Origin: Coriobacteriaceae bacterium
GTDB lineage: Bacteria > Actinomycetota > Coriobacteriia > Anaerosomatales > SLCP01
Reading direction: 5' to 3'
Length of the DNA stretch: 32,634 nucleotides
Assembly: GCA_003563465.1 (NCBI GenBank)
Contig: PWVH01000014.1
Span: 1 to 32,634, forward strand
The translations under genes and the position numbers were made by a program. Positions within the stretch are counted from its first letter, which is position 1. The number at the start of each line of letters is the position of its first letter. A model generated the notes under the pieces. That model ran no database searches. It was not told the origin of the DNA and saw only the letters and a list, made by a program, of their open reading frames with translations. This document shows positions 1 through 29,831 of this stretch, in pieces.

Positions 1-1068
1 GTGGCGGCGCTGTCTTTCGCAATAGGCATGCGCGGCGGAGCATACTCTCTCTATGTGGCCGAGGGCCGTGACGAGCGCATCCTGCCCAATGTCTTGCACA
101 CCGCGCGCTTCATCTGGGTCGTTACGGCGGTCTACGTCACCGCCGGGACGCTCACTCTCTTCGGACTCGCCACGTATCTGGGCATGGCGCCCGAGCGCGG
201 GATATTGCATGCCTTCTGGTTGTCCGCGGCCGCATTCGACACCGGGGGATTCGCGCCGCAGCGGATGAATCTCATGTACTACCATAACCACTTCGTCGAG
301 CTTGTAGCGCTGTTCCTTATGATGGCCGGATCGCTTAACTTCGCCTTGCACGCGCATGTATGGCGCGGGGCGACGTCTGAGATCCGCAAGAACCTCGAAA
401 CGCGCGTGCTCGCTTTCGTGGTGACCGTCATGTCGGCTCTCGTTGTCGCGGGCCTCGGCTCGTCGGACTCGTTCTCCGGTGCGTTCGGGACGTTTCGCAA
501 AGGTGTCTTTCAGGTGATCTCCGGGCACAGTGCCGGTCATCAGACCGTCTACGGGAACCAGCTGATGCTCGACCTCGGAGGAGCGGGGCTTATCGCGCTT
601 ATCCTCGGCATGGCTGTCGGGGGGTCGCTGTCCTCAACAGGTGGAGGCGTCAAGGCCCTGCGTGTGGGGGCGATCTCGAAGTCGATACTGTTACAGATCA
701 AGAAGGCGCTCGCGCCCCAGAGCGCGGCCATCGATGTGCGGTATCATCACCTCGGCCCTCGGATCCTCACTCCGGAGCTCACAGGCGCGGCGGCGACCAT
801 ATTCATCCTCTATCTCGGCACGTATCTTCTGGGAGGCATCGTGGGGGCAGCATATGGGTACGGCACCCCGCAGGCGATGTTCGAATCGGTGTCGGCCACG
901 GCCAACTCCGGGCTGTCTATCGGCATCACTTCAGCTGCGATGCCCACCGGGCTCAAGCTCACGTACATGTTCCAGATGTGGGCAGGCCGCCTCGAGTTCA
1001 TCGCGGTCCTCGTGGTCATCGCTCAGGTGATTCTCGCTTTCAACCTCAAGGGGAGACGTGCGAGATGA
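1..1068 (+). CDS. trkH: TrkH/KtrB-family K+ transporter membrane subunit, C-terminal part (5' end outside window)
   Basis: ORF is open from the window edge. It is a multi-TM protein with TrkH-type pore-loop motifs (GGSLSSTGGGVKALRVG, SATANSGLSIG). Stop TGA at 1066-1068. Confidence 0.85.
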   Translation: MAALSFAIGMRGGAYSLYVAEGRDERILPNVLHTARFIWVVTAVYVTAGTLTLFGLATYLGMAPERGILHAFWLSAAAFDTGGFAPQRMNLMYYHNHFVELVALFLMMAGSLNFALHAHVWRGATSEIRKNLETRVLAFVVTVMSALVVAGLGSSDSFSGAFGTFRKGVFQVISGHSAGHQTVYGNQLMLDLGGAGLIALILGMAVGGSLSSTGGGVKALRVGAISKSILLQIKKALAPQSAAIDVRYHHLGPRILTPELTGAAATIFILYLGTYLLGGIVGAAYGYGTPQAMFESVSATANSGLSIGITSAAMPTGLKLTYMFQMWAGRLEFIAVLVVIAQVILAFNLKGRRAR

Positions 1069-1574
1069 GACGCGTATTCGGCATAGCTGCTCTCGCGGTG
1101 GGGCTGCTTGCTTCAGCGGTCTCTCCCGCACTGGCCTTTCGCGATGGCGTGATGTCTCCAGCCGAGGTAATAGCCATCGACCGCGACCGCGACGGCAGTG
1201 TCATCACGGTGGAAGGGGAGGCGGTCGGGGAGCATCTTCGCGCCGCCGGAGGCGGCAGGTGGGTGAACATCTTGGGGGATGAGGTCGGCCTCGGAATATG
1301 GGTTACCGAGGAGATGGCAGAAAGCATCGAATACTTCGGGGACTACCGCTACGACGGCGACATCGTGCGAGTCACGGGAGTCGTCAATGTCGCATGCGAG
1401 CAGCATGGCGGCGAGTTCGACGTGCACGCGCAGAAACTCGAGATCATCTCGCGTGGCGGACCGAGACCTGTCGAGGTCAGGCCCGTGAAGGGCATCGTCG
1501 GTGCAGTGGGCCTCGTGCTCGCTTTCGGTCTTTGGCGCCTCTACATCCACCGTCGCGAACGCCGCATGCTCTGA
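1065..1574 (+). CDS. Hypothetical exported, membrane-anchored protein (possible OB-fold-like beta domain)
   Basis: ATG 1065 overlaps the trkH stop (ATGA). Has an N-terminal signal peptide MRRVFGIAALAVGLLASAVSPALA and a C-terminal TM helix VGAVGLVLAFGLWRLYI followed by basic residues. The family was not recognised with certainty. Confidence 0.6.
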   Translation: MRRVFGIAALAVGLLASAVSPALAFRDGVMSPAEVIAIDRDRDGSVITVEGEAVGEHLRAAGGGRWVNILGDEVGLGIWVTEEMAESIEYFGDYRYDGDIVRVTGVVNVACEQHGGEFDVHAQKLEIISRGGPRPVEVRPVKGIVGAVGLVLAFGLWRLYIHRRERRML

Positions 1575-1637
1575 ACGACTCCGGGGTATGAACCGCACAT
1601 GGCGTGCCCAGAGTTGCGATTGAGCGGAGGCCTGGAG

Positions 1638-2240
1638 ATGCCGACGAAAGCGCGAATGTTTGCGATCGCCGTCGCGGTGCCTTGCGCACTGGTTCTGGCG
1701 CTTGTAGTCGGCGGGTGCGCTGCCGAGGAGCCCGAACCGACCGCCCTGCCGCCTTCTGTCGAGCCCGAGTCGCCCGCCGAAGAGCCACCTTCGGAGCGGC
1801 CGGCCTCGGCCTTTCCGTGGGCCGATGTCGAGCTCGAGGACGTCAGCACGGGCGAGACCTTCCGAATCTCCGATTTCGCAGGCAGACCGGTGCTCGTCAA
1901 GACGTTCGCCGTGTGGTGAAGCGTCTGTCGCCGTCAGTTGACGGAGACTAGCAAGCTCGTGCGAGAAACTGATGAGGTCGTAGTGGTCGCCGTCGACATC
2001 GACCGAAACGATGACGCTCAGGCGGTGCGCGACCACATCGATCGCAACGACTTTGCAGGCTTGTTCGTTGTGGCGCCCCTCGAGATGACCGAGATGCTGA
2101 CCGACGAGTTCGGCACTGTGATAGTTATTCCGCCGAGAACGCCCAAGATACTCCTCAACTCTGCGCAGACAGATGCGGACCTGTTCACGGGAGTGAAGTC
2201 CGCCGAGGAATTGCTTGCGATAGCCGAGGACACTCGGTGA
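1638..2240 (+). CDS. TlpA/ResA-like thiol:disulfide oxidoreductase lipoprotein, selenoprotein (Sec encoded by in-frame TGA 1917-1919; motif W-U-S-V-C)
   Basis: ORF-track entries 1599..1919 and 1938..2240 are in the same frame and are separated only by TGA 1917-1919. The joined sequence reads ...RISDFAGRPVLVKTFAVW-U-SVCRRQLTETSKLVRETDEVVVVAVDIDRNDD..., a thioredoxin-fold WCxxC context with Sec in the first position. A GGAGG RBS precedes ATG 1638. The lipobox is LVVGG|C. A hairpin follows the TGA, and selD/selA/selB are in the same window. Confidence 0.8.
1923..1948 (+). promoter_or_regulatory. Putative bacterial SECIS hairpin for the TlpA-like selenoprotein
   Basis: Upper stem CCGTC(1931-1935)/GACGG(1940-1944) with apical loop AGUU. 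Lower stem GTCT(1923-1926)/AGAC(1945-1948) with a 4-nt 5' bulge. The apical G-U lies about 20 nt after the UGA. Confidence 0.55.
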
Positions 2241-2260
2241 GCGGTCGCTAGTGATTAGCT

Positions 2261-2929
2261 GTGACCACGCTTGCCGACCTTGCAGTGACGTTCTGGCTCG
2301 GGGTGCTCACTCCGGCCACGGCACTTTGCGTCATCCCGCTTTATCCGGCGTTCCTCTCGCGTCTCGCGCGCACCGTCGGGGAGCGGCACGATTCGCGCCG
2401 CTATCTGGCTTTGTTCGGCGTGCTGGTGAGCGCGGGCGTCATCGCGTTCATGGCGCTTGTAGGTGTGGTGTTCACGACATGGCTGCAGGCCTCACTCACA
2501 CGCGTGATCGGAATCGTCTCGCCGATCGCGTTCGCGATCATTCTGTTTGCCGGTGTGGTGCTGGTCGTGGGATGGAAGCCCAAGCGCAAGGTTCGCCCGA
2601 ATCGAATCACGAACCCCTACGTCGCCGCGTTCGCCTACGGCTTCTTTTTCGGGGCTATCGTGATTCCGTGCAACCCGGCGCTGATCGCAGCTTTCTTTGC
2701 CCGGGTAGCCACAGTAACCGATGTGGCCACCAACATCGCCTTGTTCACCGCGTTCACTCTTGGCATCTGCGCACCGCTTTTGGCCTTCTCGCTGGCGAGC
2801 CGTGCGGCAAGCCGCTGGATGGTCAACTCTCTCGTCGCCTACGAGCGACCGATCGGAGTCGTGGCCGGACTCACCATGATCGGTGTGGCCATCTACTATC
2901 TGGTGTTCGTGTTTAGGGTGTTTGGGTAG
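2261..2929 (+). CDS. ccdA: CcdA/DsbD-family cytochrome c biogenesis / thiol-disulfide electron transfer membrane protein
   Basis: Polytopic membrane protein with the two CcdA-type Cys motifs (LTPATALCVIPLYPAF and AIVIPCNPALIAAFF). Lies directly downstream of the TlpA-like gene. GTG start. Confidence 0.85.
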   Translation: MTTLADLAVTFWLGVLTPATALCVIPLYPAFLSRLARTVGERHDSRRYLALFGVLVSAGVIAFMALVGVVFTTWLQASLTRVIGIVSPIAFAIILFAGVVLVVGWKPKRKVRPNRITNPYVAAFAYGFFFGAIVIPCNPALIAAFFARVATVTDVATNIALFTAFTLGICAPLLAFSLASRAASRWMVNSLVAYERPIGVVAGLTMIGVAIYYLVFVFRVFG

Positions 2930-24733: not shown

Positions 24734-25765
24734 GTGAGCGATCCGATTCGCCTCACCCAGATGTCTAGCAAGGCCGGTTGAGCTGCGAAGTGGGGTCCGG
24801 AGGACCTCGCCAACGTGCTCGCTTCGCTCTCACCTCAGGAGTCCGAGCGGCTCATGGTGGGTTTCGAGACCAGCGATGACGCCGCTGTCTACCTGCTCGG
24901 CGACCGCGCTGTTCTGCTCACCATAGACTTCTTCACGGCCATGGTGGACGACCCTTACGACTTCGGGCGAATCACGGCTGCCAACGCGCTATCCGACATA
25001 TATGCGATGGGTGGCCGGCCTCTTGCGGCACTCAACATGCTCGCCTTTCCCTGCTCGATGGACCCGGACGTGGTTGCCCAGGTGCTCCAGGGTGGCGCGG
25101 CGACCTGTGCCGAGGCCGGGGTGCTCGTGGTCGGGGGGCACACGATCGACGACAAGGAGCCGAAGTTCGGGCTTGCGGTCATGGGGGAGGCCGATCCGGA
25201 TGCGGTCGTGCGCAACGTCGGCGCGCGCGAAGGCGACTCTCTCGTGCTCACGAAGCGCATCGGGGTCGGGATCATGAATACCGCACTCAAGGCCGAACTC
25301 GAGACAGAGGAGACGCTTGCTGATGTCGTCGAGTCCATGGCGCACCTGAACAAGACTGCTGCCGAGGCCATGATCGAGATCGGGGTGAACGCAGCTACGG
25401 ATGTGACCGGGTTCGGACTTCTGGGCCACGTCCGGGAGATGGCACTCGGTAGCGGTGTCGCCGCGGAAATCGAGCTCGATGCGGTACCTGTCTGGCCGAA
25501 GGCCTACGAATACGCGAGCCAAGGTGCCAAGCCGGGACGAACCCTCGACGTGATCGACGCACTCGACGAGCATGTCGACTGGGGCCCCGCCGATCAGGCA
25601 TGGAAAGACGTTCTTTGCGACCCGCAGACCAGCGGAGGGCTGCTGATGGCTGTGTCGCCCGATCGCGTCGATGATCTCTTAGCATCGCTCGAAGCCAAGG
25701 GCGAGACGGCGGCGTTGGTCGGCCACATCATTGCGGGTGAACCGGGCGCTATCGTCATAGTCTAG
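24734..25765 (+). CDS. selD: Selenide, water dikinase (selenophosphate synthetase) SelD, selenocysteine-containing form (Sec at TGA 24779-24781)
   Basis: The ORF track starts at 24815, but the same frame upstream reads V-SDPIRLTQMSSKAG-U-AAKWGPEDLANV, i.e. the conserved SelD N-terminus (RLTQ...G-[C/U]-x-x-K) with TGA at the catalytic Cys/Sec position. The rest is typical SelD (FETSDDAAVY, GGHTIDDKEPKFGLAV). Confidence 0.9.
24792..24808 (+). promoter_or_regulatory. Putative bacterial SECIS hairpin for selD
   Basis: GGGGTCC (24792-24798) pairs with GGACCTC (24802-24808), including one G.U pair, with a G-rich apical loop GGA. The loop lies about 20 nt after the UGA, the same spacing as in the TlpA-like gene. 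Confidence 0.55.
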
Positions 25766-26145: not shown

Positions 26146-26232
26146 GAGATGAGGGAGATTGAGGTAATAGTCCCGCTTGGCGTGTCGAGATCGGTGGATC
26201 GACGGCTGCGCGCAGCCTGCCCTTCGAACAGG

Positions 26233-26238
26233 TAGAAT
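26233..26238 (+). promoter_or_regulatory. Candidate -10 element (TAGAAT) 7 nt upstream of the selA ATG (possible leaderless transcript)
   Basis: TAGAAT at 26233-26238, ATG at 26246. No Shine-Dalgarno between them. Confidence 0.3.
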
Positions 26239-26245
26239 CACTCTC

Positions 26246-27646
26246 ATGGACACTCAAGAACGTCTCAGACGGCTTCCCAAGGTCGACGATCTGCTCAGGC
26301 ACTCTCGCGTGCTCGAGATGCTCGAAGACCACCCGCGCCCTCTCGTGCTCGAAGTTCTGCGCGAGTCACTCGACCTCACGCGCAAACGCTTGATTGCCGA
26401 CGAGCGCGCATCCTATGACGAGGCCACGTTGCTCGCGGAGGCTGAAACGCGGCTCGCACTGAAGTCGCTGCCGAGTCTGCGCCGCGTGATAAACGCGACC
26501 GGGATCATCGTTCACACGAACCTCGGCAGGTCCATCCTCTCGAAGAAGGCGGTAGCAGCCGTCACGGAGGTCGCAGGCTCCTACTCGACGCTCGAGTACG
26601 ACACGGCTTCGGGCGAACGGGGCAGCCGTCATGTCCACTGCGAGGAGCTGCTTTGCCGCTTGACCGGCGCCGAGGCGGCCATGGCCGTCAACAACAACGC
26701 TGGCGCAGTCATGATTGCACTCGCCGCCTTCGCCAGGGGCAAAGAAGCGGTGGTCAGCCGCGGCCAGCTCGTGGAGATAGGCGGCTCCTTTCGCATACCC
26801 GACATCATGCGAGAGTCCGGCGCGACCATGGTCGAAGTCGGCACCACCAACAAGACCCACTTGCGCGACTACGAAAACGCCATAACGGAGCGCACGGGTC
26901 TCATCCTCAAGGTGCACTCGAGCAACTTCCGCGTGGTGGGCTTCACGCAAGAGGTCGGATTGAGCGAGCTGGTGGAGCTCGGGGCCAGGCACGGAGTGGT
27001 GGTCTTCGAGGATTTGGGCTCTGGGGTGATCATCGACCTGCGGCGTTACGGTCTGCCATACGAGCCCACGGTAGCCGAGTCTGTGGCGACGGGCGCCGGA
27101 CTGGTCTCTTGCTCGGGTGACAAGCTTCTAGGAGGGCCTCAAGCTGGAATTCTTGTGGGCAGTGCCGAGATCATCCAGCGCCTTAAGAAGCATCCCATGG
27201 CCCGTGCCTTGCGCCTCGACAAGATGACGCTGGCTGCCCTGGAGGCCACGCTTCGCACCTACATCGACACCGAAGCGGCGCTTGCCGAGATTCCGACACT
27301 TCGCATGCTCGTCATGCCGCCCGCCGAGGTGGCCGAGCGTGCGGCAGCCCTCGCTTCCCGTATCGCGGAGGAGTGTGGGAACGGAGTCGAGACCGACACC
27401 GCGGGTGATGTCTCGCGGGCCGGAGGTGGGTCGCTGCCGCTGGCTGATATCCCGACCACGGTCGCTCGCGTCAAGCCCCGAAGCTTCTCGGTGACGGAAC
27501 TGGAACGCCGTCTGCGCCTCGGCGAGCCGCCCATAGTGGCACGAATCAAAGACGAACGCCTGCTTATCGATCCGCGCACGCTGTGCGCGGGAGAGGACGC
27601 CGAAGTCGTCTCACGGGTGGCGTCGGTTCTTTCGAACGAGGCGTGA
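26246..27646 (+). CDS. selA: L-seryl-tRNA(Sec) selenium transferase SelA
   Basis: N-terminus MDTQERLRRLPKVDDLL aligns with the SelA N-terminal domain. PLP-lysine context CSGDKLLGGPQAG. INATGIIVHTNLGRS. Confidence 0.95.
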   Translation: MDTQERLRRLPKVDDLLRHSRVLEMLEDHPRPLVLEVLRESLDLTRKRLIADERASYDEATLLAEAETRLALKSLPSLRRVINATGIIVHTNLGRSILSKKAVAAVTEVAGSYSTLEYDTASGERGSRHVHCEELLCRLTGAEAAMAVNNNAGAVMIALAAFARGKEAVVSRGQLVEIGGSFRIPDIMRESGATMVEVGTTNKTHLRDYENAITERTGLILKVHSSNFRVVGFTQEVGLSELVELGARHGVVVFEDLGSGVIIDLRRYGLPYEPTVAESVATGAGLVSCSGDKLLGGPQAGILVGSAEIIQRLKKHPMARALRLDKMTLAALEATLRTYIDTEAALAEIPTLRMLVMPPAEVAERAAALASRIAEECGNGVETDTAGDVSRAGGGSLPLADIPTTVARVKPRSFSVTELERRLRLGEPPIVARIKDERLLIDPRTLCAGEDAEVVSRVASVLSNEA

Positions 27647-27651
27647 GCGGC

Positions 27652-29568
27652 ATGCCGTCGCTTGTCCTCGGTACCGCCGGTCACATCGATCACGGCAAGT
27701 CCACGCTCATCAAGGCGCTCACCGGCACCGATCCCGATCGCCTCGCTGAAGAGAAGGCCCGCGGCATCACCATCGAACTCGGCTTCGCGCAGCTCGTACT
27801 ACCGAGCGGGCGCACGATGGGCGTGATCGATGTGCCAGGTCACGAGCGCTTCGTCAGGCACATGGTTGCTGGCGCCACGGGCATCGATGTCGTGCTCCTA
27901 GCGGTAGCGGCAGACGACGGTGTGATGCCACAGACTCGCGAGCATCTCGCGATTATCGATCTTCTGGGAGTAGAACAGGGTGTCGTGGCGCTCACCAAGG
28001 CCGATCTCGCCGATTCCGAGTGGCTCGAGCTGGTCGCCGAGGAAGTTCGCTCGCTGCTGGGAGGCACCTCGATTGCGGGCGCTCCCGTCGTGCCGGTTTC
28101 TGCCATCGCTAGTGAGGGACTCACCGATCTGCTGACCGCACTCGATGCGATTGCTGCAGAGGCTCCCACTCGTCAAGCGAATCTGCCCATGCGTCTTCCG
28201 GTCGACCGGGTCTTCACCATCGCAGGGGCGGGCACGGTAGTCACCGGCACGCTCTGGTCCGGTTCTGTAACCAAAGACGAGCAGTTAGAAGTCCTGCCCG
28301 CCGGTCATGAGGGTCGCGTACGAGGTGTGCAGGTGCACTCGGAGAGCGTTTCTAAGGCCACCGCCGGTCAGCGCGTGGCGCTCAATGTCGCCGGTCTCGA
28401 CAGAGACGACATCGCTCGGGGAGACGTGATTGCCGCGCCAGGCACTCTGGGAGTCACCGACCGCTTCGATGCTCGCTTTACTTACCTTGGGATTCCGGGG
28501 GAGGACAAGGTCTTCGAGAGCGGCACGCGCGTGCACGTCCACCATGGCACTCGCGAAGTGATCGGCAGGGTGCTGCTGATGGACTCACCGATGCTTGCAC
28601 CAGGCGATTCTGGCCTTGCCCAAGTTCGCCTGGAGGAGCCGCTCGTGCCTCGCTACGACGACCGCTTCATCGTGCGGTCCTACTCGCCCGTATACACGAT
28701 CGGTGGCGGGCTGGTGCTCGACGTCCTGCCCCCTCGCCGCACGAACCTGCGGGCGCACGAGCGCGAGTTGCTCGAGGCTCTCATCGCGCACGACCTCTCG
28801 GCGGCCAACAGCGGGCTGCTTGCTTCGCGTGGCCTGCCTATGACCTCGGCAGAGGTCGCGGCGGCGCTCGGTGTACCGCGGGCGCAGGTCGCCGACGAGC
28901 TCAACCGCGCCGATTTCGCCCGGCTGAAGATCGGCGGAGAGACCGCCTTCATCACATCCGGCGCGCTGGAGGCGTTCGTGGTCATGATCGAGCGAGAACT
29001 GCTCTCGTTTCACGAGGCCAAACCGAAGGCCACCGGTGTCGGAAAGGCAGCGCTGCGCAGTCGCGTGGACCGCAGGTTGACACCCAGGGCTTTCGACGCC
29101 CTGCTCGAAGTCGCTGTCGGGCGGGAAGTCGCCGTGGTCGAGAAAGGTACCGTGCGACATCCGAAGGCCGCCGTTTCGGCGCTTGCCGAGGAGCAAGCGG
29201 CCGAGGTGGCGCTGCGGCCCCTGGTGGCGCAAGACGGTTTCGCTCCAAGGACCGTGGCCGCGTGGTCGGCCGAAGCAGGGGTCGATCCCGGGGTGGCCCG
29301 CAAGGTTCTCAACCGCATGGCATCCGAGGGCAAGATCGTGCGTGTCAGCTCTGATCTGTACTTCGACGTGGGCGCAGTCGATGCCATTCGGCAGCGGATC
29401 GTCGCCCACCTGGGTCAGCACGGTAGCGCGCCGACCTGGGAGCTGCGCGACGTCATCGGCGTGAGCCGCAAGTACGTGGTCCCGCTGCTGGAGCACTTCG
29501 ACTCCATACGCCTGACGAGATTCGAAGGCGACCAACGTTCGCTACGCAGGGATTCGAACCAGGGCTGA
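27652..29568 (+). CDS. selB: Selenocysteine-specific translation elongation factor SelB
   Basis: GTPase motifs GTAGHIDHGKST, DVPGHERF and TKAD, followed by EF-Tu-like domains II/III and a long winged-helix C-terminal extension. Starts 6 nt after the selA stop. Confidence 0.95.
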   Translation: MPSLVLGTAGHIDHGKSTLIKALTGTDPDRLAEEKARGITIELGFAQLVLPSGRTMGVIDVPGHERFVRHMVAGATGIDVVLLAVAADDGVMPQTREHLAIIDLLGVEQGVVALTKADLADSEWLELVAEEVRSLLGGTSIAGAPVVPVSAIASEGLTDLLTALDAIAAEAPTRQANLPMRLPVDRVFTIAGAGTVVTGTLWSGSVTKDEQLEVLPAGHEGRVRGVQVHSESVSKATAGQRVALNVAGLDRDDIARGDVIAAPGTLGVTDRFDARFTYLGIPGEDKVFESGTRVHVHHGTREVIGRVLLMDSPMLAPGDSGLAQVRLEEPLVPRYDDRFIVRSYSPVYTIGGGLVLDVLPPRRTNLRAHERELLEALIAHDLSAANSGLLASRGLPMTSAEVAAALGVPRAQVADELNRADFARLKIGGETAFITSGALEAFVVMIERELLSFHEAKPKATGVGKAALRSRVDRRLTPRAFDALLEVAVGREVAVVEKGTVRHPKAAVSALAEEQAAEVALRPLVAQDGFAPRTVAAWSAEAGVDPGVARKVLNRMASEGKIVRVSSDLYFDVGAVDAIRQRIVAHLGQHGSAPTWELRDVIGVSRKYVVPLLEHFDSIRLTRFEGDQRSLRRDSNQG

Positions 29569-29735: not shown

Positions 29736-29831
29736 GACTGGTTGAGTCGGCTGGCGCCGATCGCGGAGTGCAAATCCGTTGGGCTCACCGCAGAGGTCAG
29801 CTGTTCGGTTCGATTCCGAAACCAGTCTCCA
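29736..29831 (+). tRNA. tRNASec-like tRNA with cysteine identity elements (anticodon GCA, discriminator U73, CCA encoded), in the position usually occupied by selC
   Basis: Hand fold: acceptor GACTGGT(T) / GA / D stem GTCGGC - loop TGGC - GCCGAT (6 bp, 4-nt loop) / C / anticodon stem GCGGA - loop GTGCAAA - TCCGT / 24-nt variable region with stem GCTCACC..GGTCAGC / T arm (T)TCGG-TTCGATT-CCGA(A) / ACCAGTC / T / CCA. The acceptor plus T branch totals 12 bp (7/5 or 8/4). Confidence 0.75.

Follow-up and report, generated by a model that had tools for sequence, protein, structure and literature searches.

Thioredoxin-fold proteins with a U-x-x-C active site, in which selenocysteine (Sec, U) replaces the first cysteine, have long been established, and published accounts list among them a 'thiol:disulfide interchange protein', a 'Prx-like thiol:disulfide oxidoreductase', DsbA-like and DsbG-like proteins and a 'UGC-containing TlpA' (PMC1794560, PMC2398784, PMC13188914). 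The same accounts describe Cys-to-Sec conversion as frequent in such families (PMC1794560) and include exported UxxC thiol:disulfide selenoproteins (PMC1794560, PMC13188914). Related reductases that keep both cysteines are found outside the cytoplasmic membrane: ResA of Bacillus subtilis and TlpA of Bradyrhizobium are membrane-tethered, carry CxxC at the N-terminus of a helix, receive electrons via CcdA and act in the maturation of cytochrome c and CuA. In Streptococcus pneumoniae, the lipoproteins Etrx1 and Etrx2 are paired with CcdA1 and CcdA2, and their client is MsrAB2. Here we describe a gene from a Coriobacteriaceae bacterium (GCA_003563465.1, contig PWVH01000014.1, positions 1-32,634; this whole stretch of 32,634 nucleotides is referred to as the window), which very probably encodes a lipid-anchored, extracytoplasmic reductase with a TlpA/ResA-like thioredoxin fold, employing selenocysteine as its attacking residue and re-reduced by the CcdA protein encoded directly downstream.

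With the catalogued UxxC and TlpA-like selenoproteins, as described, the window protein has in common a Trx/TlpA-like fold, Sec in place of the first Cys, an ancestry among Cys forms, a selenocysteine insertion sequence (SECIS) just 3' of the UGA and PF00578 as the best match. The catalogued examples come from Deltaproteobacteria, Firmicutes and marine metagenomes, whereas the present one belongs to an uncultured order of Actinomycetota, and the two are set apart here by their description, not by alignment; the motif FAVW-U-[ST][VT]-C, the lipobox and an obligate ccdA partner are, on the same footing, features of the clade to which the window gene belongs. A preliminary description of this DNA had correctly presented UxxC thioredoxin-fold selenoproteins as known, but it also called exported versions uncommon, and with such proteins already catalogued the novelty is smaller than this implied.

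The gene model itself required correction. Automated gene calling splits or shortens the gene, and the sole entry that protein databases hold for the window sequence is an 85-amino-acid C-terminal piece (P0010). As had been proposed, the two open reading frames are a single frame, which from either ATG 1599 or ATG 1638 is interrupted only by the TGA at 1917-1919 and then stays open to the TGA at 2238-2240. The peptide across the interruption reads ...RPVLVKTFAVW-U-SVCRRQL..., so that the TGA takes precisely the place of the first Cys in the thioredoxin motif W-C-x-x-C, opposite the aligned Cys of full-length homologues. With U entered as Cys, Pfam matches extend across the site for AhpC-TSA (36.1 bits), Redoxin (31.7 bits) and Thioredoxin (27.6 bits), all of them over their cut-offs. 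As to the start codon, ATG 1638 is likelier than the upstream ATG 1599: a GGAGG lies 7 nt 5' of it, and the orthologue alignments begin near this Met.

Evidence that the UGA is read comes from homologues. When 146 genomes from this order were searched in six frames, 25 orthologues emerged; they are spread over 19 genera with identities of 35-59%, and each of the 25 contains exactly one in-frame stop, which is always TGA and always in the active-site column. In a sample of 400 genomes of the phylum outside the order, the homologues had Cys at this position in eight of eight cases and a stop in none, and full-length Cys homologues run uninterrupted through the site with FAVWCPTC, FAVWCSTC or FAVWCSVC. 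Some 600 representatives were recovered at E below 1e-10, and among the aligned homologues none was found to end at the TGA position; the W, the C/U, the second C and two Pro residues are invariant in the alignments. Downstream of the TGA, the ratio of nonsynonymous to synonymous substitution rates (dN/dS) is 0.12-0.22 in six closely related pairs, similar to the upstream value of 0.13 from the one reliably aligned comparison (L010/L011); the upstream value of the pair L101/L102 was discarded as meaningless, L102 stopping at a contig end. Since Cys homologues span the site, the TGA is conserved and the segment behind it is under purifying selection, the UGA is best regarded as a sense codon, and these comparisons confirm 1638..2240 as a single gene in which UGA 1917-1919 would be read as a residue.

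If the TGA were instead a true stop, the locus would be either a pseudogene or a short lipoprotein gene followed by an independent C-terminal open reading frame beginning at TTG 1938 or later. This is how automated gene calling treats it, the database piece P0010 is in line with such a view, and the hairpin behind the codon is weak by itself. We nevertheless give a true stop next to no credence: the TGA occupies the same column in all 25 orthologues, even those with identities as low as 35%, the reading frame continues across it with the low downstream dN/dS just mentioned, no homologue ends there, and half a thioredoxin fold would be unstable. The downstream half is thus not an independent gene, and the case in which the family would simply end at the TGA fails. 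The one likely pseudogene found looks different, being frame-shifted: L018 (G022:C1:622985-623500) is without the TGA, has its frame shifted around the active site (...GGHGAHPGLRGVVTNVSQAVAC...) and is probably a decayed copy. In a close relative (L020 1480-2394; GCA_036681025.1, contig JAXDEL010573703.1), a tlpA-like stretch that reaches to about residue 145 passes directly into ccdA at about residue 96 of the latter, and the product is annotated as a 227-amino-acid chimera (P0007); either a gene-fusing deletion or an assembly artefact could account for it.

In a maximum-likelihood tree the 25 UGA forms all fall into a single clade (support 100/95), within which two Cys forms are nested, P0014 and L124 (= P0009). 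The simplest history suggested by this tree would be one gain of Sec from Cys followed by two reversions to Cys, that is, three label changes.

A reading of UGA as Sec calls for a SECIS, and the preliminary description had placed a stem-loop 4 nt after the TGA, from 1923, with its apical loop about 20 nt from the UGA as in selD. A stem-loop is present, is conserved with covariation and is missing from Cys forms, but it starts at 1927, 7 nt past the UGA, and its apical loop AGUU starts 16 nt past it, a spacing similar to that of selD. In bacterial SECIS elements the apical loop lies some 16-37 nt from the UGA and has G/U in the loop, a rule that the window hairpin fits.

Several properties of the hairpins weigh against our interpretation. 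That of the window is thermodynamically unremarkable, with z = +0.2 for a 62-nt fold and z = -1.6 for a 45-nt fold, and among windows of equal size from the locus it falls at the 21st percentile, the sequence having 63% G+C; the hairpin of selD, at z = -3.0, is much stronger. The covariation described below comprises few pairs from related sequences, and some orthologues with the second hairpin type lack a G in the first apical-loop positions. Hairpin stability by itself was dropped as proof of a SECIS, being significant neither against shuffles nor against the local background. As the hairpin is weak by stability alone, its significance is drawn from comparison across genomes.

In this comparison, two SECIS architectures appear downstream of one and the same codon. 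Type A, to which the hairpin at 1927-1948 belongs, is kept in the window's own family and its nearest relatives, and 85% of the cells of its helix are paired, compared with 31-71% in slid registers. Its pair 18-25 is C-G in seven sequences, G-U in two and U-A in one, the window itself, where a synonymous Arg-codon change is matched by an Ala-to-Thr change; pair 16-27 is C-G in seven sequences and G-C in one. Type B, found in more distant orthologues, is longer (CCAGCAG...CUGCUGG plus an inner 4-bp stem) and 92% paired; despite this pairing it shows zero double compensatory changes, and as covariation support it was rejected, which is a further point on the negative side. The folding energy of the 45 nt past the codon was also ranked, locus by locus, among the remaining windows. 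This segment is more stable than the local background in the 25 Sec loci, with a median percentile of 0.09, but not in 80 loci of Cys homologues, with one of 0.53 (Mann-Whitney, p = 1e-8), the latter having no stable hairpin past their CxxC codons. The nested Cys orthologue L124 has the codon TGT, a nearly unchanged peptide (C-S-R-Q-L-A-E) and a disrupted helix, so that hairpin decay is visible in one of the two reversions. A search of the window with Rfam gave no bacterial SECIS match and returned only a tRNA-Leu and a tRNA-Sec-like tRNA. On balance, the comparison across loci provides good evidence that a functional and evolving SECIS lies downstream of the UGA.

The genome also holds the complete set for Sec decoding, selA, selB, selD and a canonical tRNASec(UCA), the last on another contig (C57:5664-5760) and the three genes within the window (Table 1). 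We propose that UGA 1917-1919 is read by Sec-tRNASec(UCA), which SelB bound to the hairpin at 1927-1948 would deliver. SelA was found in 127 of the 146 genomes of the order, from which we conclude that the whole lineage decodes Sec. In several families of the order, many SelA matches were flagged with '1 TAG' within the matched stretch, probably because the alignments overrun the gene at one end or the other. The window also carries a DsrE-like gene, a YedE-like transporter gene and a Se/S-carrier gene.

Directly after selB lies a tRNACys with the shape of tRNASec (Table 1), and this raises the question whether the UGA is read solely as Sec. The tRNA has a 12-bp acceptor/T branch divided 8/4 or 7/5, a 6-bp D stem and a long variable arm. 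The selC* class of tRNACys has been described from Firmicutes, Thermodesulfobacteria, Nitrospirae and Proteobacteria, and a member with the opal anticodon UCA translates UGA as Cys in E. coli, GCA forms being listed there but untested (PMC5389517); a further paper states that both UCA and GCA forms of tRNAReC have been reported to recode SECIS-linked UGA as Cys (PMC13582414, citing Vargas-Rodriguez 2018). The SECIS-directed UGA could accordingly be read in part, or under conditions such as selenium shortage, as Cys by a SelB-delivered Cys-tRNAReC, giving a mixture of U-x-x-C and C-x-x-C enzyme. Besides these precedents, such dual decoding would be in keeping with the conservation of the GCA tRNA, which has U73 and an encoded CCA and whose counterparts in three other genomes carry compensatory stem changes. 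A GCA anticodon, on the other hand, normally does not pair with UGA, a covariance model detected the tRNA in only four of the 146 genomes of the order, and the canonical tRNASec and full selABD set are present. Because just one of the 25 genomes with a UGA-form gene, namely that of the window, has tRNAReC, the UGA cannot depend on it. We consider dual decoding quite improbable, although the tRNA adjoining selB does tell against an exclusively Sec-containing product, part of which may carry Cys. A little more doubtful still is the idea that the codon is deliberately ambiguous, specifying Sec when selenium is available and Cys via tRNAReC(GCA) when it is not, so that the chemistry of the reductase would switch without genetic change; if true, a secreted enzyme would here provide a naturally occurring example of coding that alternates between Sec and Cys according to conditions.

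Table 1. Features of the window discussed in the text, ordered by position
Feature	Position	Strand	Remarks
Exported 198-amino-acid protein	978-1574	+	C-terminal transmembrane anchor; no Pfam match; between trkH and the selenoprotein gene, overlapping the end of trkH
TlpA/ResA-like lipoprotein selenoprotein, predicted coding sequence	1638..2240	+	200 codons from ATG 1638; ends at TGA 2238-2240
Lipoprotein signal peptide (predicted)	1638..1718	+	MPTKAR, hydrophobic core, lipobox L-V-V-G-G/C (slash, cleavage site); lipidated Cys codon 1716-1718; read from the translation
Predicted selenocysteine codon, in-frame UGA	1917..1919	+	First (nucleophilic) position of W-U-S-V-C; Cys in homologues
Resolving Cys (TGT) of U-x-x-C	1926..1928	+	Invariant column C110 in alignments A2 and A5
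SECIS-type hairpin	1927..1948	+	GUC.CCGUC-AGUU-GACGG.GAC; 8 bp, one G.A mismatch; from folding and covariation
ccdA (DsbD_TM family), membrane thiol-electron conduit	2261..2929	+	Pfam PF02683, 32.1 bits (cut-off 27.1); 20 nt after the selenoprotein stop
selD, itself a UGA-containing selenoprotein gene	24734..25765	+	UGA 24779-24781, followed by a strong hairpin
selA, selenocysteine synthase	26177..27646	+	Pfam SelA, 505 bits
selB, Sec-specific SECIS-binding elongation factor	27583..29568	+	Pfam GTP_EFTU, SelB beta-barrel, SelB winged-helix 2 and 3
tRNASec-shaped tRNACys (selC*/tRNAReC type)	29736..29831	+	GCA anticodon, U73, encoded CCA; directly after selB

The protein was placed with the help of its predicted structure and of sequence comparisons. 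An AlphaFold2 model built from a 32-sequence alignment, with residues numbered from Met 1638, has a domain with a predicted local distance difference test score (pLDDT) of about 97 from residue 61 to the end, and in it the U-x-x-C stands at the N-terminus of the first long helix (residues 95-110), which begins directly after U94 (U107 when counted from ATG 1599). The best Foldseek matches in the PDB were B. subtilis ResA (1su9, 1st9; template modelling score TMt 0.77-0.82), DsbF/DsbE of Mycobacterium tuberculosis, StoA, thioredoxin-family proteins of Geobacter, and Etrx1/Etrx2 (TMt 0.75-0.79). In a profile sequence search of the PDB, the pneumococcal entries 4hqs (Etrx1), 4evm (a membrane-anchored thioredoxin-family protein) and 2yp6 (Etrx2) ranked first and TlpA (1jfu) sixth, the pneumococcal matches, including 4hqz, having E values of 2e-12 to 1e-9. 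The protein fits the TlpA/ResA/DsbE-like superfamily (cd02966 type), which is marked by a thioredoxin fold with an N-terminal extension and a central insert, CxxC at the N-terminus of helix 1 and a conserved cis-Pro loop, the cis-Pro being a putative assignment here. The protein missed the NCBIfam cut-offs for TlpA (NF047696; 37.6 versus 230), ResA (PRK03147; 24.8 versus 170), DsbE (TIGR00385; 19.1 versus 123) and WAxxUGC_long (NF041054; 27.8 versus 300), the UGC/WAxxUGC families also having a different motif. With all four scores far below cut-off, it belongs to the broad TlpA/ResA-like superfamily and to none of the named families, and the earlier designation as TlpA/ResA-like holds at the level of that superfamily.

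The likeness to these systems has limits. ResA and TlpA differ in having a transmembrane helix as anchor, as opposed to the lipobox and Sec found here, and the window gene is not linked to resBC, ccm or sco. Etrx1 and Etrx2 are closer in arrangement, being lipoproteins that sit outside a monoderm membrane with CcdA as their partner, but they have Cys-x-x-Cys in place of Sec and are only about 20% identical, and the Sec loci have no linked Msr gene. The two-gene module also exists in a Cys form, an FAVWCxxC protein with CcdA, which is found in Methanosarcinales, DPANN archaea, Chloroflexota and other Actinomycetota. It has the same gene order and 30-48% identity over the whole domain, often with a lipobox-like N-terminus, and differs in that Cys stands in place of Sec and the CxxC codons are followed by no stable hairpin.

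The lipoprotein signal noted at the outset (LVVGG followed by Cys) is present, fits the lipobox pattern [LVI][ASTVIG][GAS]C and is kept as L-x-[AG]-C in the Sec orthologues. Once exported, the precursor would be acylated on its lipobox Cys and stay anchored to the outside of the cytoplasmic membrane. The signal peptidase II LspA is encoded in the genome (G000), which also encodes lipobox proteins. Less favourable to a lipid anchor is that no Lgt (PF01790) was found in this genome, a 91%-complete metagenome-assembled genome (MAG); Lgt may be in the missing 9% or may be divergent.

The pairing with ccdA, likewise recognised in the preliminary description, is strict: ccdA follows directly 3' in 24 of 24 Sec loci. 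It does so in 72 of 80 loci of Cys homologues as well (Methanosarcinales, DPANN archaea, Chloroflexota, Actinomycetota), a control set obtained by a pattern scan of the genome collection that required 'WC' and hence contains Cys forms only. Adjacency in both kinds of locus identifies the conserved unit as a two-gene module, and beyond ccdA no neighbour is conserved across the 25 Sec loci. By analogy with CcdA-ResA and CcdA-Etrx, cytoplasmic thioredoxin would reduce CcdA, so that reducing equivalents cross the membrane; the presumably co-transcribed CcdA would in turn reduce the selenylsulfide of the lipoprotein U-x-x-C on the outer side of the membrane, and the selenolate, at a solvent-exposed nucleophilic position, could then attack disulfides or other oxidised groups of extracytoplasmic clients.

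The role of the reductase may be general or dedicated. A narrower role, as a ResA/CcmG-type reductase reserved for the CxxCH of apocytochrome c ahead of haem attachment, would accord with ResA as the closest solved fold and with CcdA-ResA as the classic pathway. The genome also encodes, at C54:15446-20885 (-), genes that by eye resemble CcmF, CcmC, CcmB and CcmA (System I), among which no CcmG was recognised, nor was a separate one identified; and at C117:74-3407 (-) it has a second and better-scoring CcdA (80.8 bits), paired with a transmembrane-anchored thioredoxin (CAPC). The presence of these genes elsewhere detracts from a purely general function and makes one in cytochrome c maturation possible. 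Yet no gene for cytochrome c maturation is a conserved neighbour in the 25 loci, the NCBIfam scores for ResA and DsbE are far under their cut-offs, and the second Trx(CAPC)-CcdA pair argues against assigning that task to the window protein. The gene is, moreover, patchy, just 25 of the order's 146 genomes having it, and the Cys module occurs widely among archaeal lineages, DPANN-type MAGs among them. To our knowledge, these archaeal lineages mostly lack c-type cytochromes. We judge the dedicated role unlikely for these reasons and, by analogy with pneumococcal Etrx, favour a general role in surface reduction or repair, ccdA being the only conserved neighbour and the Cys module extending into such archaeal lineages.

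Other observations on the genomic context may be recorded here. Beside the C117 pair, we recognised by eye an ArsR-type regulator, a small redox-active-disulfide protein and a permease. For System II, the only match to ResB was below threshold and lay inside a 683-amino-acid open reading frame that we read by eye as CcmF-like, and it was not confirmed. In four Sec loci, trkH and an exported OB-like protein are present; the gene at 978-1574 of the window is syntenic with trkH and tlpA-ccdA in L101, L016 and L017. In six of the 25 loci, including L013 (2722-3603), ccdA is followed directly by a gene that resembles, by eye, a pyridoxal phosphate-dependent D-cysteine desulfhydrase or 1-aminocyclopropane-1-carboxylate deaminase; apart from ccdA, this gene and the trkH/OB-like pair were the only neighbours to recur. 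A scan for promoters and terminators gave nothing over shuffle expectation.

The novelty of these findings is modest and comprises the gene model, a clade that is Sec-only across an order, a strict partnership with ccdA, two SECIS architectures and reversion from Sec to Cys with SECIS decay; what is understood today about selenoproteins or CcdA pathways does not change. For annotation, the gene is an example of a selenoprotein gene that gene callers split or truncate and whose model is now corrected. As an order-wide clade of an exported TlpA-like reductase from an uncultured, anaerobic lineage of Actinomycetota, it is an addition to the list of prokaryotic selenoproteins.

As a two-gene module, the FAVW[C/U]xxC-CcdA pair is very widespread among both archaea and bacteria. 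Its Sec variant may help to find the client, selenylsulfide trapping and 75Se labelling both being applicable to it. The UGA-form clade of this order constitutes a small natural experiment in the exchange of Sec and Cys.

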